Shown: positions 7,186-21,127 of the stretch, one piece after another
Numbering within the stretch: position 1 is the first letter of the stretch
How the letters are laid out: the number at the start of each line of letters is the position of its first letter
Assembly (NCBI GenBank): GCA_003345595.1
Contig: PRDI01000059.1
Coordinates: 1 to 28,095 of the forward strand
Direction of reading: 5' to 3'
Source: Candidatus Thorarchaeota archaeon
GTDB taxonomy: Archaea > Asgardarchaeota > Thorarchaeia > Thorarchaeales > Thorarchaeaceae
Length of the DNA: 28,095 bases
The notes under the pieces: generated by a model
The model's input: the letters and a program-made list of their open reading frames with translations, nothing else
Told to the model about the DNA's origin: nothing
The model's database searches: none
Made by a program: the position numbers and the translations under genes

Positions 7186-7656
7186 ATGAGCAGTCCATCA
7201 GCCGAAGATGTCAGAAAGGCCAGTATGGTGACAGTAGCAAGCGTCCACACGGTCTACATCGAAGCGGTCCGAAAGATATCAGGCGAGAAAGGTCTGAGAG
7301 CCGTAGGCGAGGCGAACAGGCTTCACGGCTTGGAGCTTGGCAAAGCGGGTGTAGCCAGCGGAGGCCTGAAGAAGGGTGATCTGAAGTCCATCTATGAGTT
7401 CTTTCAAGGAGCTCACCCATACTTCGGCTTCGAAATAGAGCTTCTCAAGGCCACCAGCCGTGAGCTCGAAATGAAGGTCACTTACTGCCCATGGATTGAA
7501 ACCTTCAAGTCAGAAGGTGCAGGCACGGACATCTGCAATTGGGTCTGCAAAATGGACGAAGGCATCGGCCAAGCTGTTGATTCCAAGCTTGCGATGACAA
7601 TTCCGAAGTGCATGATGCGAGGAGATGCATATTGCATCTATCGCTACCAGAAGTAG
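7186..7656 (+). CDS. V4R / ATC-hydrolase-like small ligand-binding protein
   Basis: 156 aa with CPW, ICNWVCKMD and CMMRGDAYC cysteine pattern typical of the V4R-like L-2-amino-thiazoline-4-carboxylic acid hydrolase family. Confidence 0.75.
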   Translation: MSSPSAEDVRKASMVTVASVHTVYIEAVRKISGEKGLRAVGEANRLHGLELGKAGVASGGLKKGDLKSIYEFFQGAHPYFGFEIELLKATSRELEMKVTYCPWIETFKSEGAGTDICNWVCKMDEGIGQAVDSKLAMTIPKCMMRGDAYCIYRYQK

Positions 7657-8945: not shown

Positions 8946-8958
8946 CGGTCTGACACCT
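8946..8958. promoter_or_regulatory. Putative operator CGGTCTGACACCT
   Basis: The 12 bp GGTCTGACACCT is identical to 14015-14026; lies just upstream of the mtaA-like RBS. Confidence 0.55.
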
Positions 8959-10018: not shown

Positions 10019-10029
10019 TTGTCAGACCA
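10019..10029. promoter_or_regulatory. Putative operator TTGTCAGACCA in a convergent intergenic gap
   Basis: The most symmetrical copy of the recurring motif, but located between two gene 3' ends. Confidence 0.35.
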
Positions 10030-10136: not shown

Positions 10137-11579
10137 CTAGGGTTTCTTCTTTGCGCGCGCCTTGATTATCTCCCGCATCTTCGCCTCGACATCCTTGTCC
10201 AGAGGGCTAACCTTGTGAGTCTCTAGGATCTTCTTGATTTTCTCCTTCGCTCTCAAGACCATGTCTTTTGATCCCTTGCCTTCCCAGTCTGGTCTCGAGG
10301 TCCTGTCAGTAAGGGAAGGTATCCAGTACTCCTCCAAGAGGTGCTTGCGAGTGAAGTCTAGGCCCTCGTCACTGGTCAGGTAGTTGCTCTCATGACCAAT
10401 CCTATCAATCAAGTCCACGGCAAGGGTTTCCTTCGTTACCTTCATGCCTTTTGCTATCCGCTTGATTGCTCCGCATATCTCATTGCTGATGGCGAACATC
10501 TCATAGCTTGCCGTGATTCCGGTCTCCACAATGCCGTATACAGCGTCGTGCACTACATCTACGCCTGCAAGAGTTGCCGTTAGCACGTTCATTGTGTTCT
10601 CATAGGCTGCCTGCGCGTCTGGAACTTTCGAATCGACTATGCCCGCTGCTCCATAGTAGGGTATGCCGTAGTAATGGGCCACTTGGCAGAACGCAGCGTG
10701 TATCAGCCCGTTCTCTGGGCAGCCATACGAGGCCGTGCCATGTCTTTGGTCCATGATCGTCGCACATGATCCCCATATCATCGGAGTGCCTGGTCCGACA
10801 AGTTCTGTCAGAACGAGCACGGCGTGATTCTCAGCTACTCCCTGTACAACCATCCCGGCGAGCGTGACAGGGCCGCTTGCACTGGCCAGGGCTCCTGTGC
10901 TTATGTCAAAAGGAATCTTGTACTTAGCGCACTCAAGGGCGATGTCTATTATGTTTGCCGTGTATTTGAGCGGTGGCACATTGTTGAGGCCAGTATCGAT
11001 GATGGACGGGTTTCTAAGAAACTCCTCTTCGCCTCCTGCATATAGCTTGGCCATCTCAATTACGTCCCTGAATCCTTCTTGTGTCACTGCGAGAAAACTC
11101 AGGTGCTTCTCAGAGCTCTTGAACATCGAGAGCGCCATGGTCTGCTCAAGGATGTCTTGTGACACTTCCTGCGGGATTATGTTCGGCTTGATGTAATCCA
11201 CTGCCGGGAAGTAGTCAGCGAGCAATGTGAACTCCTCCAAGTCCCTAAGAGTTGAAGCTCTGCGCTGTCCTGTGTTCAGATCATACGTGGACTGAGCCCC
11301 AAACGCGTTTGTGAAATAGGAGTTGCCGTCGCCAATGAGTATGTTGTATTTCGGATTGATGGCTTTGAAGAGGTGCCTGCTCGGAGTCTTCCTCAACGTT
11401 TCCTTTACCAAGTACTCCGGTATGTGGGCGACCTTCTTCTTCTGATCAATAGTTGCACCTGCCTCTTTGAGTATCTTGAGAGCCTCGTCATGCTGAATGA
11501 GTATTCCGGTTCTCTCCAGTACTTCCATGGCAGCCATGTGTATCGCATAGACTTCGTTCCGACTCAGCAGTTCAAACAT
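10137..11579 (-). CDS. Trimethylamine methyltransferase (MttB) superfamily protein, pyrrolysine-free type
   Basis: IHMAAMEVLERTGI, GPVTLAG, DSKVPDAQAAYE, ETLAVDLIDRIG, WEGKGSKD. Uninterrupted 480 codons with no in-frame TAG. Confidence 0.92.
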   Translation of the reverse strand: MFELLSRNEVYAIHMAAMEVLERTGILIQHDEALKILKEAGATIDQKKKVAHIPEYLVKETLRKTPSRHLFKAINPKYNILIGDGNSYFTNAFGAQSTYDLNTGQRRASTLRDLEEFTLLADYFPAVDYIKPNIIPQEVSQDILEQTMALSMFKSSEKHLSFLAVTQEGFRDVIEMAKLYAGGEEEFLRNPSIIDTGLNNVPPLKYTANIIDIALECAKYKIPFDISTGALASASGPVTLAGMVVQGVAENHAVLVLTELVGPGTPMIWGSCATIMDQRHGTASYGCPENGLIHAAFCQVAHYYGIPYYGAAGIVDSKVPDAQAAYENTMNVLTATLAGVDVVHDAVYGIVETGITASYEMFAISNEICGAIKRIAKGMKVTKETLAVDLIDRIGHESNYLTSDEGLDFTRKHLLEEYWIPSLTDRTSRPDWEGKGSKDMVLRAKEKIKKILETHKVSPLDKDVEAKMREIIKARAKKKP

Positions 11580-11603: not shown

Positions 11604-12260
11604 TCAAGCTGGCTTTTTCGCGAGCAGCCGCACGGCAAGACTCACCGCTGTCACCGCATCACCTGCCCATCCATCAGCACCAATATCCCTTGCCCACTTC
11701 TCTGTGGTGGGGGCGCCTCCTATTATGACCTTGACCTTGTCCCTCAAGCCTGCTGCTTTCAGCTCGTCTATTATCTTCCTTTGAACAGGCATAGAGGAAG
11801 TGATGAGCGAGGAAAGGCCCAGAACGTCTGGTTTCTGGTCTCTCACATTCTTCAGGATGACCTCTATCGGTACATCCTCTCCCAAGTTCGCCACTTCGAA
11901 CCCGTGCGCCTCCATCATTGTGGCGACGATGTCCTTTCCAATGCTGTGAATGTCGCCCTGCACAGTTGCTATGACCACCTTGCCCGCACTCTTGATCTTG
12001 CTCTTTGAGGCCTTGATCTCCGGCAGAAGGACTGACATCCCCGCCTTCATAGCCTTGGCTGCTGCCATGAGCTCGACAAGGAAGACCTCGCCTTCACCGA
12101 ACTTGTCGCCAATCTCTCTGACACCTTTGGCCAACCCGTTGGTTATCGCGTCCATGGGAGATATCTTAGCTTCTAGAGCCTTCTTGGCTGCACTCGTGGC
12201 TTTGTCTTTGTTTCCTTGAATGACTGCTTCTCGCATTTCTTCTAGTATGGATGACGACAT
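11604..12260 (-). CDS. Corrinoid (B12-binding) protein, MttC/MtaC family
   Basis: N-terminal cap domain, DIHSIG (DxHxxG), GLSSL, IIGGAP, IGADGW. Confidence 0.95.
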   Translation of the reverse strand: MSSSILEEMREAVIQGNKDKATSAAKKALEAKISPMDAITNGLAKGVREIGDKFGEGEVFLVELMAAAKAMKAGMSVLLPEIKASKSKIKSAGKVVIATVQGDIHSIGKDIVATMMEAHGFEVANLGEDVPIEVILKNVRDQKPDVLGLSSLITSSMPVQRKIIDELKAAGLRDKVKVIIGGAPTTEKWARDIGADGWAGDAVTAVSLAVRLLAKKPA

Positions 12261-12371: not shown

Positions 12372-13964
12372 TCACTCGGGTGGTAGAGACTCGTAGATAG
12401 ATCCTACTTCGATGTTCTTCTTCCTGAGGTGCCGGGCATACACCACAAACCACAGGGCCGAAAAGCCATACTGCACTGTCATCATGACCACGGAAAAGAA
12501 CGCTGCTCCTTGGAAGAAGCCTATCATCACGAAGAGTGACAACGGCAGTATTATGATACCCAGCAACGACACAACTGGGAACCCGGCAATCTCGGGTTGC
12601 TTCCTTATGCTGCCCTCGTAAAGTGGTCTCTTTAGATATGGAAGCTGCAGGGCGGCCATGGATTGGAATATCATTTCAACGCCCCAAAGTCCGACCAGGG
12701 AAGTGACAACAGCAAGGAAGGCGACCATACCTGGCAACGCAAAGACAAATGCGAATGGCAGGCTAAAGAGGAAGTAGTATGCGATTGCATAGGTCGGGGT
12801 GTGGTACTTCGAGAGCTTTCCAAAGAACGATGGCATCATGCGGTCAAGCGAGCCTTGGAAGAACCCTCGGGTCACCCATGCCATGTTGATCGGGGTCGCA
12901 GTGAGTCCGATTACTGGGGCGGAGAGTAGAATCCAGCCTGAAATAGCGGGGTTCCCCGCTAACACAGCCGTCATTGTACCAAATCCGGTCGTGAAGGTAG
13001 GAGTTATCGTCACGCTGGCAGCTGCCACAGCATACTGAGTGGAGAAGTAACCGAAAGTACCTTGGAACAAGGCTGCTCCTCCTGCGAGCAATACCGCTAG
13101 AATGATGCCGCCAAGGACCTGTACAAGAACGAGGTTCTTCGCAGGGTCAGACATCTCGCCACCATAGTGCAGGATCAGATATGGCCAGACAAGACCGACC
13201 GGCCAAATCGTGGCTAGGAAGGTCATCTGCCAGCTGAACGCCGGTGCAACACCGAACCCCGCACCCGTGGCGACAGTCACCACTTCGCTGTAGGCTCCGG
13301 CTCCGAAAGCGGCGTTCCATCTTGACTCGACCGCAGAGGCGGGAGTGGCGACAAGCACCAGTATCGCCATAATCCATCCTATCGTGGAGAACAGACCACC
13401 AATCATCTGAATACGGGGCTCAAGCCTGAATAGCGGACCTAAGTAGGCAACAATAACGAAGACGAGCATTAGGAATATTGAGAGTCCGACCAGAAGGTAT
13501 GGGTTTCCGATCTGGGCTGACATCGCTGCTCCCCATGATTTCAACATTGCGTTGCCGCTGACTGCTCCCCATTGAGCGAAAGCAGCACCTAGGTATACGA
13601 TAAAGAGGAAGAACTCACTCATCTTGATGATTGGATTCGCGATTATTCCTCGCCACACTGCGAGAATCCCTGTGACTGGGTTGAAACCTCTCGCCGAGAT
13701 TTGGTAGATACCTGCTGACCGCGGCATAGCCATGGACAGCAGTGTTATCATGACTGTGTAGATCAACATGAAGCCGAGACCTATGCTCCAGGTTAAGGCT
13801 GCGCTTATCCCGGGGTAGAGGTCCTGAAGAACGCCGGCGAACATCCACTGATATGTGCCGAGGCTTGCGCCTATTACGGCAAAGAGAGATGTCCAAGTGC
13901 CGAAGTACTTCGTGAGGCCCGATGTTGGTCTTAGAAACAGGACTTCTCCTGTACGTTGTGCCAC
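12372..13964 (-). CDS. APC-superfamily amino acid/amine permease
   Basis: 530 aa, 12 or more TM. FLRPTSGL N-terminus, AMPRSAGIY, GGEMSDP, DRMMPSFFGKLS..HTP, C-terminal YESLPPE. Confidence 0.9.
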   Translation of the reverse strand: MAQRTGEVLFLRPTSGLTKYFGTWTSLFAVIGASLGTYQWMFAGVLQDLYPGISAALTWSIGLGFMLIYTVMITLLSMAMPRSAGIYQISARGFNPVTGILAVWRGIIANPIIKMSEFFLFIVYLGAAFAQWGAVSGNAMLKSWGAAMSAQIGNPYLLVGLSIFLMLVFVIVAYLGPLFRLEPRIQMIGGLFSTIGWIMAILVLVATPASAVESRWNAAFGAGAYSEVVTVATGAGFGVAPAFSWQMTFLATIWPVGLVWPYLILHYGGEMSDPAKNLVLVQVLGGIILAVLLAGGAALFQGTFGYFSTQYAVAAASVTITPTFTTGFGTMTAVLAGNPAISGWILLSAPVIGLTATPINMAWVTRGFFQGSLDRMMPSFFGKLSKYHTPTYAIAYYFLFSLPFAFVFALPGMVAFLAVVTSLVGLWGVEMIFQSMAALQLPYLKRPLYEGSIRKQPEIAGFPVVSLLGIIILPLSLFVMIGFFQGAAFFSVVMMTVQYGFSALWFVVYARHLRKKNIEVGSIYESLPPE

Positions 13965-14001
13965 GTGAATAGCCTCGAAAGCCCGTTACAGCTCACGCTG
14001 G

Positions 14002-14026
14002 CATTTAAAAGTTTGGTCTGACACCT
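14002..14026 (-). promoter_or_regulatory. Permease promoter: TATA box TTTTAAAT with the adjacent AGGTGTCAGACCA motif
   Basis: Minus strand aggtgtcagaccaaacTTTTAAATg; TATA about 40 nt before the GTG at 13964. Confidence 0.6.
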
Positions 14027-14065
14027 GAGAAGCTTAAGTTCCATGGGTTCTGGGATGCCTCTAAT

Positions 14066-14773
14066 CTAAACTACGACTTTAACAATATAGTACCTTCTCC
14101 AAGGCCGGGGTTTCTTCACGACCTCGATATGGTCGTAATCAACAAACCCAAGACCAACCATGTGCTTCTCCGGTTCCTCACCTGCCTGCAACAAGTACTG
14201 TCGCAGTTCGTCGATGAGCATCTGCACGGTTTCGCGAAGGTCAATAGAGCGAAGTTTCTGCGCTTCCGGGTTATCCCTGAAGTACGCATCAATCTTGCCT
14301 GCGATTCTGGATCCGATGAGACCTCTGGAAACAAGGCCCGCAAGTAGTGATCCAAGAGCAATGAAGATCATGTAGGGTCCAATCTGCTGAAGAATGACAA
14401 CCCCCGGGGCAAAGAGTGATATGAATAGTATGAGGAAAGCAATGGGAACCAAGATCTGCCACATTGCCTCTATATAGGACTGCATCTTGGACAATCGGCG
14501 TGCACCGGGGATCTTGACGGTGATTCGAGCCATTTTCCACATCTTGAGCTGGACAGATTTCCAGTCTTCTGCAAACGGGCGGCCAAGATTGCCCGCCTGG
14601 ACCTTCTTATCAATCCAGCTGAAGTCATAGAAGACGTGGGATCTGTAGGCGTCTATCGTATAGGCGACCTTTCCAATCTCGGTGGGGTCCACCTTTCCCC
14701 GACGCGCACTCGGCTGAGAACGTCCGCGGTCTAGGCGTCCGCGCTCATCGTCATCGCCCATCATTTTTGTCAC
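14066..14773 (-). CDS. Hypothetical 2-TM membrane protein
   Basis: Central hydrophobic hairpin with soluble flanks; 11 nt downstream of the phosphoesterase stop, so probably co-transcribed. Start may be the ATG at 14764 or 14761. Confidence 0.75.
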   Translation of the reverse strand: MTKMMGDDDERGRLDRGRSQPSARRGKVDPTEIGKVAYTIDAYRSHVFYDFSWIDKKVQAGNLGRPFAEDWKSVQLKMWKMARITVKIPGARRLSKMQSYIEAMWQILVPIAFLILFISLFAPGVVILQQIGPYMIFIALGSLLAGLVSRGLIGSRIAGKIDAYFRDNPEAQKLRSIDLRETVQMLIDELRQYLLQAGEEPEKHMVGLGFVDYDHIEVVKKPRPWRRYYIVKVVV

Positions 14774-14784
14774 GGCTCTGGCGA

Positions 14785-15735
14785 CTACGCGGACACGTTC
14801 AGTACTTCAACCTTCCCACCCACTTCCTTGGGCAGGTCGAGGACGAAGGCGTTCAGCATACCTTGAACATAGACCGACCCCGAATTCACACATAGGGTTC
14901 GACCTATCTGTTCTATGCCGCCAGATTCGTGAATGTGCCCATGTAGACCAAGTAGGGGTTGGTACTTCTCAAACAGTTCCCGCATGCTCCTGCTGCCCAC
15001 ATGAACCATGTCAATGTTGCCAAAATGGATCTTCACTCTCTGCTGGCTGTCCAGTTTCGGAGCAAGATCGAGTCGCGTTCCGAATGGAGGCGCATGGAAA
15101 TTACAAATCAGGTTTTCGTACTGCCCGACTCGACTAAACTCCTCCTGCAGCCTGACCTTCAAATCCTCGTCAGAGCATTCACGAGGTGTCCCCCAAGGTG
15201 TGGAATTGACCCATTCGCAGCTGATCATCGAGTGAATCTCATCAATCTCCACCACGCGCTCGAGAGGGTATACTATCCTCTTGCTGTTCTTGATGAGATC
15301 ATCGATGGCCTGCGCGTCATCGTTTCCTGGTGATACGACAACCTTCACATCGGCAGGGACAGTTTCTTCAATCCATTGGAGCCAATCTCGTATCCTGTCG
15401 ATCATCAGTTTGGTGAACAGATCGCTTGCTTTCTTTTGGTCTGACTGCAACTCAGTCAGCTCTGACTCGGTGGTCATGAACCAGTAGAAGCCGCGCTTCT
15501 CGAAGGCCTTCTTCGCCGCTTCAACTGCCTCTTGATTCTTGTACTTCTCCCTTGTCCCATATGGAGCTGACCACCAAGAGCCCGGCTTGTCTTCTATGAT
15601 GGGCACAAGAGCCTTCCCGGTCAGGTCCCCACACATCATGACCACATCGCATTTGTATGCTTCGTGGACCTTTGCCATCTTTCGCAGTACTGGAACACTA
15701 CCGTGTGCATCGCATGAGAAGAAGAGTCGTGTCAT
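14785..15735 (-). CDS. Calcineurin-like metallophosphoesterase (Icc-related), GNDD variant
   Basis: All five motifs present: CDAHG, CGDLTG, PGNDD, NFHAPP, HGHIHE. Start moved to MTRLFFS. Confidence 0.9.
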   Translation of the reverse strand: MTRLFFSCDAHGSVPVLRKMAKVHEAYKCDVVMMCGDLTGKALVPIIEDKPGSWWSAPYGTREKYKNQEAVEAAKKAFEKRGFYWFMTTESELTELQSDQKKASDLFTKLMIDRIRDWLQWIEETVPADVKVVVSPGNDDAQAIDDLIKNSKRIVYPLERVVEIDEIHSMISCEWVNSTPWGTPRECSDEDLKVRLQEEFSRVGQYENLICNFHAPPFGTRLDLAPKLDSQQRVKIHFGNIDMVHVGSRSMRELFEKYQPLLGLHGHIHESGGIEQIGRTLCVNSGSVYVQGMLNAFVLDLPKEVGGKVEVLNVSA

Positions 15736-15766
15736 CGGCCGAATCCTTTCGGAAGGCAGCACAGCA

Positions 15767-15778
15767 GATATTTAAGTG
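15767..15778 (-). promoter_or_regulatory. TATA box CACTTAAATATC
   Basis: About 35 nt before ATG 15735. Identical 12-mer at 21150-21161 and variant CACTTATGTATC at 17820-17831, each at similar spacing from a minus-strand start. Confidence 0.6.
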
Positions 15779-15820
15779 TTAACTTGGGGGACTATAATAG
15801 CTTAATATCGAGGACTCTTC

Positions 15821-16603
15821 ATGCAGGGAGTAACAGGGCCGAATGATTCATTCGTCAAGGAAGGCTTGCGAATCGTACGGGCGGCTGAAAAGGAAGGAGT
15901 GGTCTTGAGAGTCATGGGTGCTGTGGCAATCAGGATTCATTGTCCCGGATCCCTTGACCTGCTCCAAAAGCTTGGACGTGATATATCGGACATCGATTTC
16001 GTGGGCTACGAGAAGCAGACCTCAAAGATAGAGAAGCTGATGCCGACACTTGGATACACCAGCAGGCGGCTATCTTACAGTTTTGCACAGGCAGGACGAT
16101 TGATCTTCTTGGACAGCTCCGACCCGACTGGCTCCAAGCACATCGATGTCTTTCTTGATAGATTGGCGATGTGCCATACTATTCCCTACTTGGGACGACT
16201 TGAGGTTGACAGTCCCACGGTTCCTCTTGCAGAGATTCTACTTCAGAAGACTCAGATTGTGCAGCTGAGTGAGAAGGATGTAAAGGACACCATGGTGCTT
16301 TTCAAAGAGCATGACATAGGCGCCGACGACTCGGACACAATCAACATACGCTATATCGCTGAGCTACTCTCGAAAGACTGGGGATTCTATCACACCGTGA
16401 CCACAAACCTGCAGAAGGTGAAATCGCTCGTCGACGGGTTTTCGGTCCTGTCGGCGCAAGACAAGCAACTCGTCGTGTCCAGGATTGACAAGAGCCTTGC
16501 TAGGCTCGATGCTGAGCCGAAGACCAGCGCTTGGAGAATGCGTGCAAAGGTTGGGGTCAAGAAGAAGTGGTACAAGGATGTGTATTCCCCCGCCAAGCTC
16601 TAG
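15821..16603 (+). CDS. Uncharacterised Pol-beta-superfamily nucleotidyltransferase
   Basis: hGAxA motif (VMGAVA), DxD (SDIDFV), third acidic residue (HIDVF), later LQK and KDVKD helices; basic Trp-rich C-terminal tail. Confidence 0.75.
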   Translation: MQGVTGPNDSFVKEGLRIVRAAEKEGVVLRVMGAVAIRIHCPGSLDLLQKLGRDISDIDFVGYEKQTSKIEKLMPTLGYTSRRLSYSFAQAGRLIFLDSSDPTGSKHIDVFLDRLAMCHTIPYLGRLEVDSPTVPLAEILLQKTQIVQLSEKDVKDTMVLFKEHDIGADDSDTINIRYIAELLSKDWGFYHTVTTNLQKVKSLVDGFSVLSAQDKQLVVSRIDKSLARLDAEPKTSAWRMRAKVGVKKKWYKDVYSPAKL

Positions 16604-16712: not shown

Positions 16713-17792
16713 TCATTTCGGGAAGACTATCTGCACTTTGATTGATTTCGACTTCTCCTTGTTCAGAGCGATGTCGAATGCAGCAGGAGCATCATTGAGA
16801 GGATATCGGTGAGTGATGAGCTTCTTGACATCGAACTTACCTCGAGCCAGAAGGTCGAGTGATACAGCGAACTCCTTGATGTGAGTCCAGTTCTCGTATC
16901 CCCAAGCCGATCTCATGACCAGCTCCTTGGTGAGGAATCCGAATGGTTCGATTGAAACCGGCTTCACGTAGATTCCGGTCATCACTAGGATCCCCCTACG
17001 TCTCAGAACCGATAGGCCATCGGTGACCGCAGATGACTCTCCGCCAACAGATTCTATGACCTTGTCTACTCCATTGCCACCTGTCAATTCATTGATTCTG
17101 TCAACAGGTTTCTCAGTGCGTGCATTGATTACGCCTGCGGCTCCGAAATCCTTCGCTGCTCTAAGCTGGAAGTCGTGTGTGCCCACCGCATGAACTTCTC
17201 TGGCACCTGCCAGTAACGCCGCCTTGACTGCTAGAAGTCCGATTGTGCCGGCACCAAACACTGCGACCGTGTCCTCATTGGAAACCTGTGCGAGCCTGAC
17301 TGCATGCTCGGCCACGGAGATGCAGTCCAGCATGGCTGCCTCTTCGAATGACACACTCTCTGGCAGCTTGAAACAACTGTCAGCCGGGACTGCGCAATAC
17401 TCAGCCATGCCACCATTGAGGTAGAATCCTACGAGCCGAGAGGCAGAGCACAGATTGTACCACCCGGCACGGCACCACTTGCACACCCCGCAGCTGATGG
17501 TGGGCTCAACCCCAACTCTGTCACCCTTGGCAATCCCTGTCACGTCAGGTCCTATCTGGTAGACCTCTCCCGCGAGTTCATGCCCAGGCACGTATTTTCC
17601 TTCCCCAAGTTCAGAGGAAACGGGGATGGGAGTCTTCTGTTTGTAGAGATGCAGGTCGCTCCCGCATATCCCTGCCGCTTTCACTTTCAGGAGGACCCAC
17701 CCCGGTCGAAGGTCCGCAATGTTGATGCTTTCCACTCTGACGTCCTTCGGACCGTACAAGACTGCTGCTCGTGTGCTTTTCAAGCTCGACAC
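16713..17792 (-). CDS. Zn-dependent medium-chain dehydrogenase (threonine/sorbitol dehydrogenase-like)
   Basis: GICGSDLH, GHELAG, structural zinc CGVCKWC-x7-C, Rossmann GAGTIG. Confidence 0.93.
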   Translation of the reverse strand: MSSLKSTRAAVLYGPKDVRVESINIADLRPGWVLLKVKAAGICGSDLHLYKQKTPIPVSSELGEGKYVPGHELAGEVYQIGPDVTGIAKGDRVGVEPTISCGVCKWCRAGWYNLCSASRLVGFYLNGGMAEYCAVPADSCFKLPESVSFEEAAMLDCISVAEHAVRLAQVSNEDTVAVFGAGTIGLLAVKAALLAGAREVHAVGTHDFQLRAAKDFGAAGVINARTEKPVDRINELTGGNGVDKVIESVGGESSAVTDGLSVLRRRGILVMTGIYVKPVSIEPFGFLTKELVMRSAWGYENWTHIKEFAVSLDLLARGKFDVKKLITHRYPLNDAPAAFDIALNKEKSKSIKVQIVFPK

Positions 17793-18548: not shown

Positions 18549-19709
18549 TCAAATCACGCGCGCCAGCAACTCCATCAGATCACAAACCTGTAGATGCCCA
18601 CCCGACGAATCGGATGAATCCTTCAGGTTTTGCCTGCAGAATGGACATGTAGTAACGAGATACTGTGCTGCGGTCTGCTCGGCTTCCTTGATCCTTTCAT
18701 TCGCGACCTTCAGTGCTGAATCGGGGAAAGCAGACTTCACACCTCCACCAGCACCGCAGCACCACGCATCTTCGCGTGTACGTTCCATCTCAACAAGCTC
18801 CAACCCGGGTATCGATTTGAGGACTCTTCTGGGGGGGTCGTACACACCTGTGTGCCTTCCCAAGTGGCACGGGTCATGGTAAGTGACTTTCGCGTCGATT
18901 CGGCCATTGAGCTGAAGCTTGCCCCTACCTAGCAGGTCCTCAACAAACTCTGAGAAGTGGAGAACCTTCCACGGCATCTCTCCAAGAAGCTTAGGATAGT
19001 CCAGCTTGAGTGTTCTATAGCATCCCGGGCAATGGGTTACAATGGTTTCCACTCCTAGAGACCTAAACAACTCAACGTTATGATTCGCAAGGTCCAATCC
19101 CACATCTCTTGCACCTGTCCTGAAGGCTACTGAGCCGCAGCACCATTCCTTGGGAGCGACCAGAACCTCAACTCCCGCTGCATCCATGACTTGTAGGGAC
19201 GCTCTTGAGATCTCAGGCTGCCTGTATGGAGCTGTGCACCCAGTGAAGTACAGTATCTTGCTTTGTCCTGAAACATCCTTGCCTTGGGGTATCCATTTCA
19301 CTCTGTCTTCATGCTTTTCCATGTACGGATTATGTTCCTTCTTGATCCAATCTAGTATCTCCTTGTGTCGGGGCATTGGTCCGAGCCCGACGTCTGCCAT
19401 ATCGGCTCTGAGGGCCTCAAGAATATCCACCAAGTCCAAATGGATGATCCTATCGCAGATGGTCTCACAGGATCCGCAGAGTGTGCATTCATAGATCCTC
19501 TTGGCGAGCTCAGGAGAGGGGTGCAGTTCTCCATTCATGAGAGCTCTTGCAATGAGAAGCTTCCCCCTAGCTGTTGAAGATTCAAACCTGCCCAAGAATC
19601 GTGAGGGACAACGGTCTTCGAGATAGCCTCCTCCACAGTAACCACATCTCCCACACTTCCAGATTTGGTTGTAATACTCAGAGATCTGCATTACTTTGCC
19701 TCCGTTCAT
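18549..19709 (-). CDS. Fe-S oxidoreductase with two 4Fe-4S motifs and two CCG domains (GlcF/GlpC/HdrD-like)
   Basis: CGRCGYC...CP, CTLCGSCETIC, WCCG twice, CPGC, YHDPCHLGR, CPFC. ATGA overlap with the upstream gene. Confidence 0.92.
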   Translation of the reverse strand: MNGGKVMQISEYYNQIWKCGRCGYCGGGYLEDRCPSRFLGRFESSTARGKLLIARALMNGELHPSPELAKRIYECTLCGSCETICDRIIHLDLVDILEALRADMADVGLGPMPRHKEILDWIKKEHNPYMEKHEDRVKWIPQGKDVSGQSKILYFTGCTAPYRQPEISRASLQVMDAAGVEVLVAPKEWCCGSVAFRTGARDVGLDLANHNVELFRSLGVETIVTHCPGCYRTLKLDYPKLLGEMPWKVLHFSEFVEDLLGRGKLQLNGRIDAKVTYHDPCHLGRHTGVYDPPRRVLKSIPGLELVEMERTREDAWCCGAGGGVKSAFPDSALKVANERIKEAEQTAAQYLVTTCPFCRQNLKDSSDSSGGHLQVCDLMELLARVI

Positions 19710-21127
19710 CGTATCATCTTCCCCGGATTCAGAATGTCGTTAGGGTCCAGCTCCTTCTTCAGTCGCTTAACAAGCTCATACCAGCCACCAAGTCTGGGAA
19801 TCGAGTATTTCGCTAGGAACAGGTGATCGCCCAATCGCCAAGGCATGAAACCTAGCTCAAACCATTTCTTCGTGAGCTCCTCGGCAGTCTCTCTGATACG
19901 AGGGCGCTCTTCCGGGTCAATATAGCGAAACTCCCCGAAGACTCCCCAGCCTCTAGGAATCAACCATCCCCCGAAGCCGGCCTTTGGCGGAGGTATCCAA
20001 CCGTGCTTCTTGATCACGACCTCTTCCCAAACTTCGAAGAATTTGTTTAGCGAGTAGAGTGGACAATATCCGCCGACATAGTCGATTGGGCCCGGCTCGA
20101 AGTAGTCAGTCAGACCACCCCATAGATAGCCGTGATCGCGATGATGAGTCACCTCTGTCTTCTTGGGATCGCCTTCCTTCCCGCCTGCCTTCTCGCAGAT
20201 GTCTCTTATCCTCTCGCAACGAAACTCAAGTTCCTTTTCGGTATAACCATACGTCCAGACCCTGGCTTCTGCTCCCGGTCCAGTTGACACACATCCCCCT
20301 TTGGTGTACTCCAGATGAAAGACCAACTCATCACCTACAGGCCTAGTCACTTCATCACCGACTTTCTCTACGTTTTCCAGTCCCGGGAATTCGAAGAACA
20401 TGTAGGCATCCAATGGAATCGGCGTTACTCTCAGGGTGACCTCGGTGATCACTCCCAGCTCTCCGCCCGAGCCAATGAAGAACTGCGTCAGGTTTGGCCC
20501 TATCCCTCCGCTATCGAAGGGTCGAAGCCCAAGATACTCTACGGCGGCCGTCTTTACTATCTCGCCAGTCGGTAGGACAACCTCGAGGCCCAAGACGTCC
20601 CATCCTAGTCTTCCTCGTTTCGTCACTCCTATTGAACCCGAACCCCTCTTCGTTATGCTAGCTCCAATCGTTATGGCCCGACCACCCATCTCTCTTGGCT
20701 CACATGATAGGCCTAGCTTCTTGAGCTCATTCCGAAGCTTGAACCAGGTACACCCGCCTTGAACGGTTGCGGTCAATTCCCTCTCATCGATCTCTACGAT
20801 CTGATTCAATGAGGTCATGTCCATCAGGATTCCACCCTGCACCGGGAGCCATTCTCCCCAGTGCGAAGTGCCACCACCTCTGACATAGACCGGTATCCTA
20901 TACCGGTTTGCCACTCTAACGATGGTTGAAACCTGGTCTGTCGTGTAGGGTCGGACGACAAACGATGCTCTCTTTTCTGGAGCTGAGCTCAAGTCCCGAG
21001 TGTAGGCCTCAAGGTCAAAGTCCTTGTCAGACACATTCTCCGGTCCAACTATGTTCTCCAAAGTCTTGTAGAGTAATCCATGATCTTCAGTCAAGCTAAA
21101 ACACCTGGTCAAGTCGCCTAGTCGCAT
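19706..21127 (-). CDS. FAD-binding oxidoreductase (GlcD / D-lactate dehydrogenase / VAO family)
   Basis: VRP..TDQVS, RGGGT, VLGLEVVLPTGE, FIGSGGELGVITE, C-terminal LDPNDILNPGK. Alternative TTG start at 21094. Confidence 0.92.
   Translation of the reverse strand: MRLGDLTRCFSLTEDHGLLYKTLENIVGPENVSDKDFDLEAYTRDLSSAPEKRASFVVRPYTTDQVSTIVRVANRYRIPVYVRGGGTSHWGEWLPVQGGILMDMTSLNQIVEIDERELTATVQGGCTWFKLRNELKKLGLSCEPREMGGRAITIGASITKRGSGSIGVTKRGRLGWDVLGLEVVLPTGEIVKTAAVEYLGLRPFDSGGIGPNLTQFFIGSGGELGVITEVTLRVTPIPLDAYMFFEFPGLENVEKVGDEVTRPVGDELVFHLEYTKGGCVSTGPGAEARVWTYGYTEKELEFRCERIRDICEKAGGKEGDPKKTEVTHHRDHGYLWGGLTDYFEPGPIDYVGGYCPLYSLNKFFEVWEEVVIKKHGWIPPPKAGFGGWLIPRGWGVFGEFRYIDPEERPRIRETAEELTKKWFELGFMPWRLGDHLFLAKYSIPRLGGWYELVKRLKKELDPNDILNPGKMIR

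Follow-up and report, generated by a model that had tools for sequence, protein, structure and literature searches.

A nucleotidyltransferase–metallophosphoesterase pair co-inherited with an APC-superfamily permease in archaea and bacteria: a possible nucleotidylyl switch on solute uptake

Results

Genomic organization and distribution of the module

The stretch of DNA under study (in the following, the window) comprises 28,095 nucleotides (nt) and represents contig 59 (PRDI01000059.1) of a Candidatus Thorarchaeota archaeon genome assembly (2.7 Mb, 83% complete). It harbors a module of four genes (see Table 1): a stand-alone nucleotidyltransferase (NTase) of the Pol-beta fold, a binuclear, calcineurin-like metallophosphoesterase (MPE), a membrane protein with two hydrophobic segments (2-TM protein) and a permease of the APC superfamily. 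An earlier note on this DNA had placed these four genes here, and all of them are present at the positions it gave; the divergent NTase and MPE genes are separated by exactly the 85 nt it described. The open reading frame (ORF) of the MPE extends to a GTG at 15762; in the alignment, all homologues start from the ATG at 15735.

The distribution of the genes revealed that the module is real and is inherited as well as duplicated as a unit. The NTase, searched for in 41 related genomes, was found in 20 of them, often in two to three copies (and in 14 of the 24 other genomes searched within the same family); homologues carry the names Thorarchaeota, Promethearchaeota, Sifarchaeia or Bathyarchaeia. 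Among the 20 surrounding regions that were fetched, the MPE gene was adjacent to the NTase gene in 19, 16 had a permease of the same APC subfamily within 8 kb and 15 the 2-TM gene, several of the incomplete loci being truncated by the end of their contig; this bears out the wide co-occurrence that the earlier note had put up for testing. A strong MPE match was present in 21 of the 41 genomes, i.e. in the 20 NTase carriers and in genome G021, whereas the 2-TM gene and the permease subfamily occurred in 18–19 and 18 genomes, respectively, all of them NTase carriers or G021. The latter genome lacks the NTase and encodes MPE, 2-TM protein and permease on one short contig, the MPE match running to the contig end; in the other 20 NTase-less genomes none of the four genes was found (for the MPE, as judged by strong matches). 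The phyletic pattern among the 41 relatives is thus nearly all-or-none.

Beyond these relatives, a pattern scan with one genome per species revealed the NTase family in at least 570 species, including Bathyarchaeia, many Chloroflexota (Anaerolineales), Methylomirabilota and Actinomycetota. Eighty further loci, many of them on truncated contigs, were searched with profiles: the 31 archaeal loci contained an MPE in 26 cases, both MPE and APC permease within 8 kb in 22 and a 2-TM gene in 15; the corresponding numbers for the 49 bacterial loci were 33, 29 and zero. In five bacterial genomes with a seemingly lone NTase, the MPE family was encoded elsewhere in all five. The trio of NTase, MPE and APC permease was encountered again in Bathyarchaeia, Chloroflexota and Actinomycetota as well as in a cultured haloarchaeon and, since the 2-TM gene is absent from the bacterial loci, these three genes constitute the core of the module, to which the 2-TM protein is an archaeal addition. 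The gene order varies while the set is kept: Bathyarchaeia contigs carry either MPE, NTase, 2-TM and APC successively on one strand or the NTase gene facing the oppositely oriented APC, 2-TM and MPE genes (NTase> then <APC<2TM<MPE). On a plasmid of the cultured Halobellus limi CGMCC 1.10331 (NZ_CP031312.1, 386259-389795; locus L117), the order is MPE>NTase><APC next to genes for IclR, an iron-dependent alcohol dehydrogenase (Fe-ADH) and an aldehyde dehydrogenase; its NTase, annotated as “hypothetical protein”, is 32% identical to that of the window. Dozens of loci from several phyla share this gene set, which places the arrangement far beyond chance. The module is ancient and undescribed: In agreement with the earlier note, which knew of no characterized system of this composition, no description was found in the literature on the gene combination, on TT1561, aq_1956 and PF14582, or on MttB, Thorarchaeota and permeases.

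The module stands at the front of a methyltransferase cluster, as the earlier note had stated: Genes for a corrinoid protein, an MttB-family methyltransferase and URO-D/MtaA-like proteins (assigned by Pfam) follow downstream of the permease, and the order of the corrinoid and MttB genes is the same in the orthologous loci of Thor-, Hermod- and Promethearchaeota. On the opposite side, a zinc-dependent alcohol dehydrogenase (Zn-ADH) gene converges on the NTase gene, a place that it keeps in the orthologous loci L013-L015 and L037-L048. Small ATC_hydrolase-family genes, one of which is present in the window, occur on both sides of the module in most orthologues (L037-L048). The window further contains a GlcD-like FAD_binding_4 gene with a CCG/Fe-S pair near the module; the same is true of the Bathyarchaeia loci L033 and L058.

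Table 1. Position of the module genes, neighboring genes and sequence elements in the window.
Feature	Position	Strand	Remarks
NTase gene	15821..16603	+	stand-alone Pol-beta-fold nucleotidyltransferase, 260 aa
NTase/MPE spacer	15736..15820		85 nt, head-to-head, ATG 15735 to ATG 15821
MPE gene	14785..15735	-	binuclear, 316 aa from ATG 15735
2-TM protein gene	14066..14773	-	235 aa; starts 11 nt past MPE stop
APC permease gene	12372..13964	-	530 aa; own promoter region; Pfam AA_permease_2
Corrinoid protein gene	11604-12260	-	downstream of permease
MttB-family methyltransferase gene	10137-11579	-	amber-free; downstream of permease
Zn-ADH gene	16713..17792	-	Pfam ADH_N + ADH_zinc_N
ATC_hydrolase-family gene	7186-7656	+	small
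GlcD-like FAD_binding_4 gene and CCG/Fe-S pair	18549-21127	-	near module
AGATATTTAAG	15766-15776		in NTase/MPE spacer
TATAATA	15793-15799		in NTase/MPE spacer
GGTCTGACA	14015-14023		exact 9-mer, upstream of permease
GGTCTGACA	8947-8955		exact 9-mer
GGTCTGACA	10020-10028		exact 9-mer
GGTCTGACA	13145-13153		exact 9-mer

Module types and catabolic context

Two archaeal module types were distinguished. Type A, the type of the window, is conserved across Thor-, Hermod- and Promethearchaeota (order: ATC-hydrolase-like, MttB, corrinoid, APC, 2-TM and MPE, followed by the divergent NTase, ATC-hydrolase-like, ADH and URO-D). Type B, which is also present in the genome of the window (contig 40), comprises Mrr-like, APC, unknown-310, 2-TM, DUF917 and MPE genes in its left arm and NTase, DUF917, hydantoin racemase, MFS, luciferase-like (LLM), AFOR and ferredoxin genes in its right arm. 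The window proteins share 58-63% (NTase), 64-69% (MPE), 71-73% (APC) and 45-52% (2-TM) identity with their type A counterparts, compared with 40-47%, 45-48%, 26-29% and 22-30%, respectively, for type B, and in genomes with two modules the parts of each type stay together as matched sets. In the type B loci (L016, L019, L022, L025-L031; e.g. L029:3311-4237), the permease and 2-TM genes enclose a conserved gene of about 310 aa that matches no Pfam model, and in about 10 archaeal loci the permease has an Mrr_cat-like gene (263 aa) at its side. The third NTase paralogue of the genome of the window (contig C123, L024) has uninformative neighbors, i.e. three genes with no Pfam match, a methyltransferase, a methylmalonyl-CoA mutase and a corrinoid adenosyltransferase.

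The usual order in Chloroflexota is DMGDH-like, choline/ethanolamine-kinase-like, APC, MPE and DeoR genes in the left arm and NTase, a protein with four CBS domains (4xCBS), DMGDH-like, ETF or transaldolase, class II aldolase, aminotransferase and HAD genes in the right arm; the 4xCBS gene follows directly after the NTase gene in 30 of the 49 bacterial loci. Another Anaerolineae operon consists of IclR, NTase, MPE, two cyclase-family genes, APC, CN-hydrolase and Fe-ADH. Judged by these neighbor sets (MttB/corrinoid/ADH; two DUF917 with racemase, LLM and AFOR; DMGDH/choline-kinase-like/aldolases; cyclase/CN-hydrolase/Fe-ADH), the module is embedded in no fewer than four kinds of nitrogen-compound catabolism.

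Comparative analysis of the nucleotidyltransferase

The AlphaFold2 model of the NTase (built on 65 homologues) reached a pLDDT of 92 and a pTM of 0.90, and every significant match of this model in Foldseek and VIA-align was a Pol-beta NTase. The concern of the earlier note that the 260-aa protein might lack the NTase fold is therefore dispelled by a confident fold with an intact catalytic triad; the three motifs it had read (VMGAVA, SDIDF, HIDVF) are present in the sequence. G33, D57, D59 and D109 are invariant in the 65 homologues and at least 97% conserved in a larger set of 92 archaeal and bacterial members, and the protein displays the features of the Pol-beta superfamily, i.e. the hG[GS] turn, the [DE]x[DE] pair, the third carboxylate and the minimal alpha/beta fold. 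Based on this model, an activity that transfers nucleoside monophosphate (NMP) groups is predicted.

According to VIA, the closest structures are those of ANT(2'')-Ia (Z 12.1), MenT1 (11.8) and a fungal NTase-like antigen (11.4), followed by the Helicobacter pylori NTase 4ok0 (10.7), LnuA (9.9), MenT3 (9.7) and MenT4 (8.5); Rel/SpoT proteins (about 7) and a cGAS-like receptor (6.0) matched more weakly. At sequence level, the NTase scored 13.9 bits (E 0.04) against NTP_transf_5 (PF14907), which is under the cut-off of 31.2 bits; 47 of the 65 relatives matched this model weakly (best E 6.3e-5), whereas AbiEii (PF08843) was weakly matched by six (best E 0.0025, below threshold) and the ANT(2'') model PF10706 (Aminoglyc_resit) by three relatives (E 0.084 or worse). 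The profile comparisons thus place the NTase as a distant relative, not a member, of NTP_transf_5, in an unnamed family that is distantly akin to AbiEii and ANT(2'') too. A search of the NTase profile against the sequences of solved structures yielded nothing meaningful, and no fused forms of the NTase or the 2-TM protein were found among longer proteins, which counts as weak evidence.

Nineteen of the 30 NTase residues that are at least 97% conserved in the 92 members are located in the C-terminal half, and residues 126-185 form the most conserved stretch. R53, R93, K143, Q145, K152, D153, D156, W187, N196, K234, W238, R241 and W250 are invariant as well. The C-terminal domain of ANT and Lnu enzymes holds the acceptor.

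Two unusual paralogues were encountered. On a JGI metagenome contig (L035:5859-7169, plus strand), a protein of 436 aa combines an N-terminal AhpC/TSA peroxiredoxin domain with an NTase part (residues 188-426, 33% identical) and may represent a redox-sensing version. A tandem pair of NTase paralogues occurs at G036:C1:1911166-1911900 (within L032), one of which is read through a single in-frame TAG in an open frame of 463 aa.

Comparative analysis of the metallophosphoesterase

The MPE matched Metallophos_2 with 31.3 bits (Pfam cut-off 27) and possesses the DxH, GD, GNDD, H and GHxH motifs that supply the seven ligands of calcineurin-like metallophosphoesterases; all seven metal ligands (D18, H20, D46, N147, H223, H276 and H278, ORF numbering) are kept and at least 95% conserved, as are 44 residues of the protein in total. 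Motif III reads GNDD rather than GNH(D/E), as pointed out in the earlier note; all of 20 homologues share this sequence, and in a set of 69 its conservation is at least 95%. The position at which Asp replaces His is not a metal ligand. Motif III of YfcE and MJ0936 is GNCD. In the profile alignment, the corresponding motif of aq_1956 (PGKNDA) likewise has no His, although this part of the alignment alone lacks significance. The MPE carries a helical insert of about 60 residues, located between motifs II and III; a second insert bears LDxAPxL and VGS motifs.

The best structural matches of the MPE model (pLDDT 92.7) are aq_1956 (2yvt, Z 22.5) and TT1561 (1uf3, Z 21.4), although the protein reached only 23.9 bits against the corresponding family Metallophos_3 (PF14582, cut-off 28.2). 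MPPED2 (Z 18.7) comes next, with Mre11 ranking between it and GpdQ and Rv0805 (both Z 16.6); MJ0936 (Z 14.5) and YfcE (Z 11.6), whose family TIGR00040 was matched with 18.7 bits (NCBIfam cut-off 56.25), are placed lower. The single MPE sequence yielded nothing meaningful against the sequences of solved structures, and the MPE profile gave a weak match to aq_1956 only. In these model comparisons, the MPE groups with the phosphodiesterase/nuclease side of the superfamily, away from the PPP protein phosphatases. Its nearness to phosphodiesterases fits the role of an eraser or a phosphodiesterase, and phosphodiester-cleaving activity would be expected from the model.

The membrane components

The 2-TM protein contains its two hydrophobic segments at about residues 99-154, which would probably leave both termini in the cytoplasm according to the positive-inside rule. 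It has no Pfam match, and its relatives in Atlas are restricted to Thor-, Bathy- and Thermoplasmatota archaea and have no known fold. Its conserved D-x-Y-R, DY and R-K-x-Y motifs are candidate modification sites that could equally be structural.

The permease matched AA_permease_2 (PF13520) over residues 21-504 with 35.6 bits (cut-off 27) and is thus assigned to the APC superfamily. Its members vary strongly, the average column identity across contexts being 33%. The bacterial proteins comprise 540-640 aa and possess about two additional hydrophobic segments close to the C-terminus (L083, L062, L073 and other Chloroflexota), whereas the archaeal proteins (510-535 aa) are accompanied by the separate 2-TM protein; judged by these sizes, the latter may complete a 14-helix assembly with the archaeal permease. 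The C-terminal end of the permease consists of (Y/F)xx(L/I/V) followed by PPE or a near variant (PPD, SPE, PPA) in 60 of 63 distinct tails, and the terminal PPE is common to the archaeal and the bacterial proteins. This conservation could be compatible with a docking motif. The Tyr and Ser residues of the window tail (IYESLPPE), which the earlier note had suggested as targets of modification, have to be dismissed as a family-wide modified site: Most homologues have Phe in place of the Tyr and Gln, Glu or Lys in place of the Ser; conservation is confined to the PPE end. When the NTase, the MPE and the C-terminal 30 residues of the permease were co-folded, each with its alignment, the score was 0.01 (mark 0.32), a result that weighs neither way.

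Promoter and operator elements

The spacer between the NTase and MPE genes holds AGATATTTAAG and TATAATA (see Table 1). An element of the form AGATATTTAA(G/A) is kept in this spacer in seven of eight type A loci (the window, L014, L037, L041, L043, L047 and L048) and is probably a TATA element shared by the two divergent genes. The 101 nt between the 2-TM and permease genes contain a TTTTAAAT box. The exact 9-mer GGTCTGACA occurs four times in the window, once upstream of the permease. GTC(A/T)GAC was considered as an operator shared with the methyltransferase genes and rejected: The pattern with one mismatch is unenriched in the window (36 found, 31.6 expected), and the motif is missing from the region in front of the permease in seven orthologous loci as well as from the NTase/MPE spacer. 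An operator role of GGTCTGACA is doubtful.

Discussion

Proposed function of the module

The four genes are proposed to constitute one solute-uptake module, composed of an APC permease, a 2-TM accessory protein restricted to archaea and a pair of opposing enzymes. The NTase would move the NMP group of a nucleoside triphosphate (NTP) onto a hydroxyl group and the MPE would cleave the resulting phosphodiester, so that the pair would reversibly nucleotidylylate a solute-independent target within the transport complex, e.g. the archaeal 2-TM protein, the CBS protein of Chloroflexota or the permease itself, and switch uptake on or off whatever the catabolic operon in which the module is placed. Such a reversible switch on a solute-independent part of the transport complex is considered the likeliest reading, albeit a tentative one that is given somewhat less than an even chance; which target is modified and how this would affect transport are both inferred. 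It is suggested by the conservation contrast between the two partners: The acceptor side of the NTase is nearly invariant (19 of the 30 residues of at least 97% conservation lie in the C-terminal half), whereas the permeases diverge strongly and the catabolic neighbors differ between lineages. This argues that all modules share one acceptor, which would not be the variable solute but rather a nucleotide or a protein belonging to the transport complex. The proposal of the earlier note that the two enzymes write and erase an NMP group therefore stands in part: The NTase fold, the phosphodiesterase-like MPE and the co-occurrence of the genes speak for it, the permease-tail Tyr/Ser target has to be given up, and the writer/eraser role itself is still inferential. 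In a farther-reaching and rather unlikely version, an ATP-consuming cycle of nucleotidylylation and de-nucleotidylylation gates or even energizes the APC permease, with the 2-TM protein (archaea) or the CBS protein (bacteria) as the modified relay; this would represent a new and ancient class of post-translational transport control that spans Asgard archaea, Bathyarchaeia, haloarchaea and several bacterial phyla. The 4xCBS gene directly behind the NTase gene in Chloroflexota also counts in favor of the switch on the transport complex; pairs of CBS domains bind adenine nucleotides and have regulatory roles.

Several observations weigh against a switch on the transport complex. The targets of the enzyme pair are candidates, and the one formerly suggested in the permease tail is not conserved. 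The fold of the NTase points to no protein acceptor, because the nearest structures include those of small-molecule O-nucleotidyltransferases (ANT(2'')-Ia, LnuA) and tRNA-modifying MenT toxins. The genes are located within catabolic operons, at L068 even co-directional and tightly spaced with catabolic enzymes, a placement that is typical of pathway enzymes, and in Chloroflexota the CBS and DMGDH genes show a tighter linkage to the NTase than the permease gene does. Furthermore, alcohol-acting enzymes recur nearby (Zn-ADH, Fe-ADH, choline-kinase-like, LLM, AFOR), so the solutes could share a hydroxyl handle that is usable by an O-nucleotidylyltransferase.

In a rival reading, the pair acts as pathway enzymes: an ANT/Lnu-like NTase that modifies an imported small molecule or a pathway intermediate, e.g. 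an amino alcohol such as choline, and an MPE that cleaves the nucleotide-solute diester or an imported diester such as a glycerophospho compound. Besides the structural proximity of the NTase to ANT(2'')-Ia and LnuA (Z 12.1 and 9.9) and the operon placement, this is in line with the resemblance of the MPE to the small-molecule phosphodiesterases MPPED2, GpdQ and Rv0805, with the hydroxyl-acting enzymes encoded in the vicinity (a choline/ethanolamine-kinase-like gene at 25 loci, Zn-ADH, LLM/AFOR, and Fe-ADH with aldehyde dehydrogenase in Halobellus) and with choline/betaine-type contexts in three lineages. However, the contexts with DUF917 and racemase or with cyclase and amidase suggest no common solute, and the permeases diverge to 20-29% identity while the acceptor-side domain of the NTase is almost invariant. 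An ATP-consuming addition followed by hydrolysis would also be wasteful for a catabolic route, and the co-inherited 2-TM or CBS proteins would be left without a role. Chemistry on the solute is therefore a serious competitor that is nevertheless regarded as unlikely. An almost invariant NTase would also be expected if both of its substrates were nucleotides, both domains being highly conserved in every context, i.e. if the NTase made and the MPE degraded a local nucleotide second messenger that a CBS (bacteria) or 2-TM (archaea) receptor relays to the permease or the pathway. The 4xCBS protein encoded directly downstream of the NTase in 30 of the 49 bacterial loci would suit such a receptor, and class-III-type phosphodiesterases (Rv0805, MPPED2) are among the structural neighbors of the MPE. 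Yet the NTase is far nearer to ANT and MenT (Z about 12) than to messenger synthases (cGAS-like 6.0, Rel/SpoT about 7), it displays no detected cyclase-type or CD-NTase features, and the archaeal module contains no known receptor domain, which renders this reading distinctly improbable. An assignment of the NTase to the CBASS-type CD-NTases with a TM effector was rejected on the grounds of the low cGAS-like score, the lack of a CBASS match in PADLOC and the catabolic context.

The likeness of the NTase fold to MenT1, MenT3 and MenT4 (Z 8.5-11.8) and the weak AbiEii matches in six of the 65 relatives (best E 0.0025) might alternatively indicate a toxin-antitoxin or anti-phage module in which the MPE neutralizes an NTase toxin. 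This is very improbable: There is no AbiEi or MenA-type partner next to the NTase, the neighbors being MPE, 2-TM, APC and ADH genes; the genes show vertical conservation and, in many phyla, a strict coupling to the permease and to catabolic operons; and the NTase occurs in 14 of the 24 other same-family genomes searched. PADLOC gave no relevant match (for the NTase only Cas5 with E 0.005, for the MPE only the candidate model PDC-S10), and the defense reading was rejected.

Comparison with known systems

The proposed switch on the transport complex resembles the systems GlnD/GlnK (PII)/AmtB and GlnE/glutamine synthetase, with which it has in common a Pol-beta-fold NTase and an opposing removal activity genetically tied to a membrane transporter; as in GlnD/PII/AmtB, the relay that is modified might be a small accessory protein. 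The resemblance is in logic only. In contrast to GlnD and GlnE, the NTase of the module is a single-domain protein, and no PII, HD, ACT and tandem or second NTase domain was found by Pfam in the module or the window ORFs scanned; the removal activity resides in a separate calcineurin-like phosphoesterase, and the transporter is an APC permease instead of an Amt protein. ANT(2'')-Ia and LnuA are similar to the module NTase in size, in the N-terminal catalytic core and in the helical acceptor domain, but the NTase fails PF10706, has no antibiotic-resistance context and is paired with a phosphodiesterase and a permease. The MenT/AbiEii (DUF1814) toxins show a comparable fold similarity (MenT1, Z 11.8) and presumably share with the module NTase a K...[KR]DxxD motif in a helix that follows the catalytic core; unlike them, the module has no antitoxin partner and no mobile or defense context, and PF08843 was matched below threshold. 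The best fold matches of the MPE, aq_1956 and TT1561 of Metallophos_3, differ from it by the inserts of the MPE, and both are without known function.

Another transporter-linked arrangement is that of the COG2905 proteins, which combine cNMP-binding, CBS and DUF294 NTase domains. Together with an RNase-T-like exonuclease, they are encoded beside SSS/ActP symporters, i.e. a transporter is accompanied by an NTase, a CBS and a phosphodiester-cleaving partner, as in the module; the NTase family, the partner nuclease and the transporter family, however, all differ, and the domains are fused in COG2905 but separate in the module. In mutant fitness data, transporter-adjacent COG2905 genes are cofit with the SSS symporter (bioRxiv 10.1101/072470). 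By analogy, this cofitness may serve as a precedent, in a different family, for transporter-linked NTase/CBS genes that matter for transport.

Implications

The presence of the module in the cultured haloarchaeon Halobellus limi opens the question of its function to direct testing. No secondary permease of the APC superfamily is known, to our knowledge, to bring its own nucleotide-adding and -removing enzymes. If the pair acts as a switch on the transporter, the module would represent a general, unstudied control of nutrient uptake, including that of methylated amines in uncultured Asgard and Bathyarchaeia lineages; if it acts on the solute, a novel reaction that depends on a nucleotide would be added to the catabolism of choline or amines. 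Under either reading, two large protein families that are annotated only as hypothetical would gain a function.

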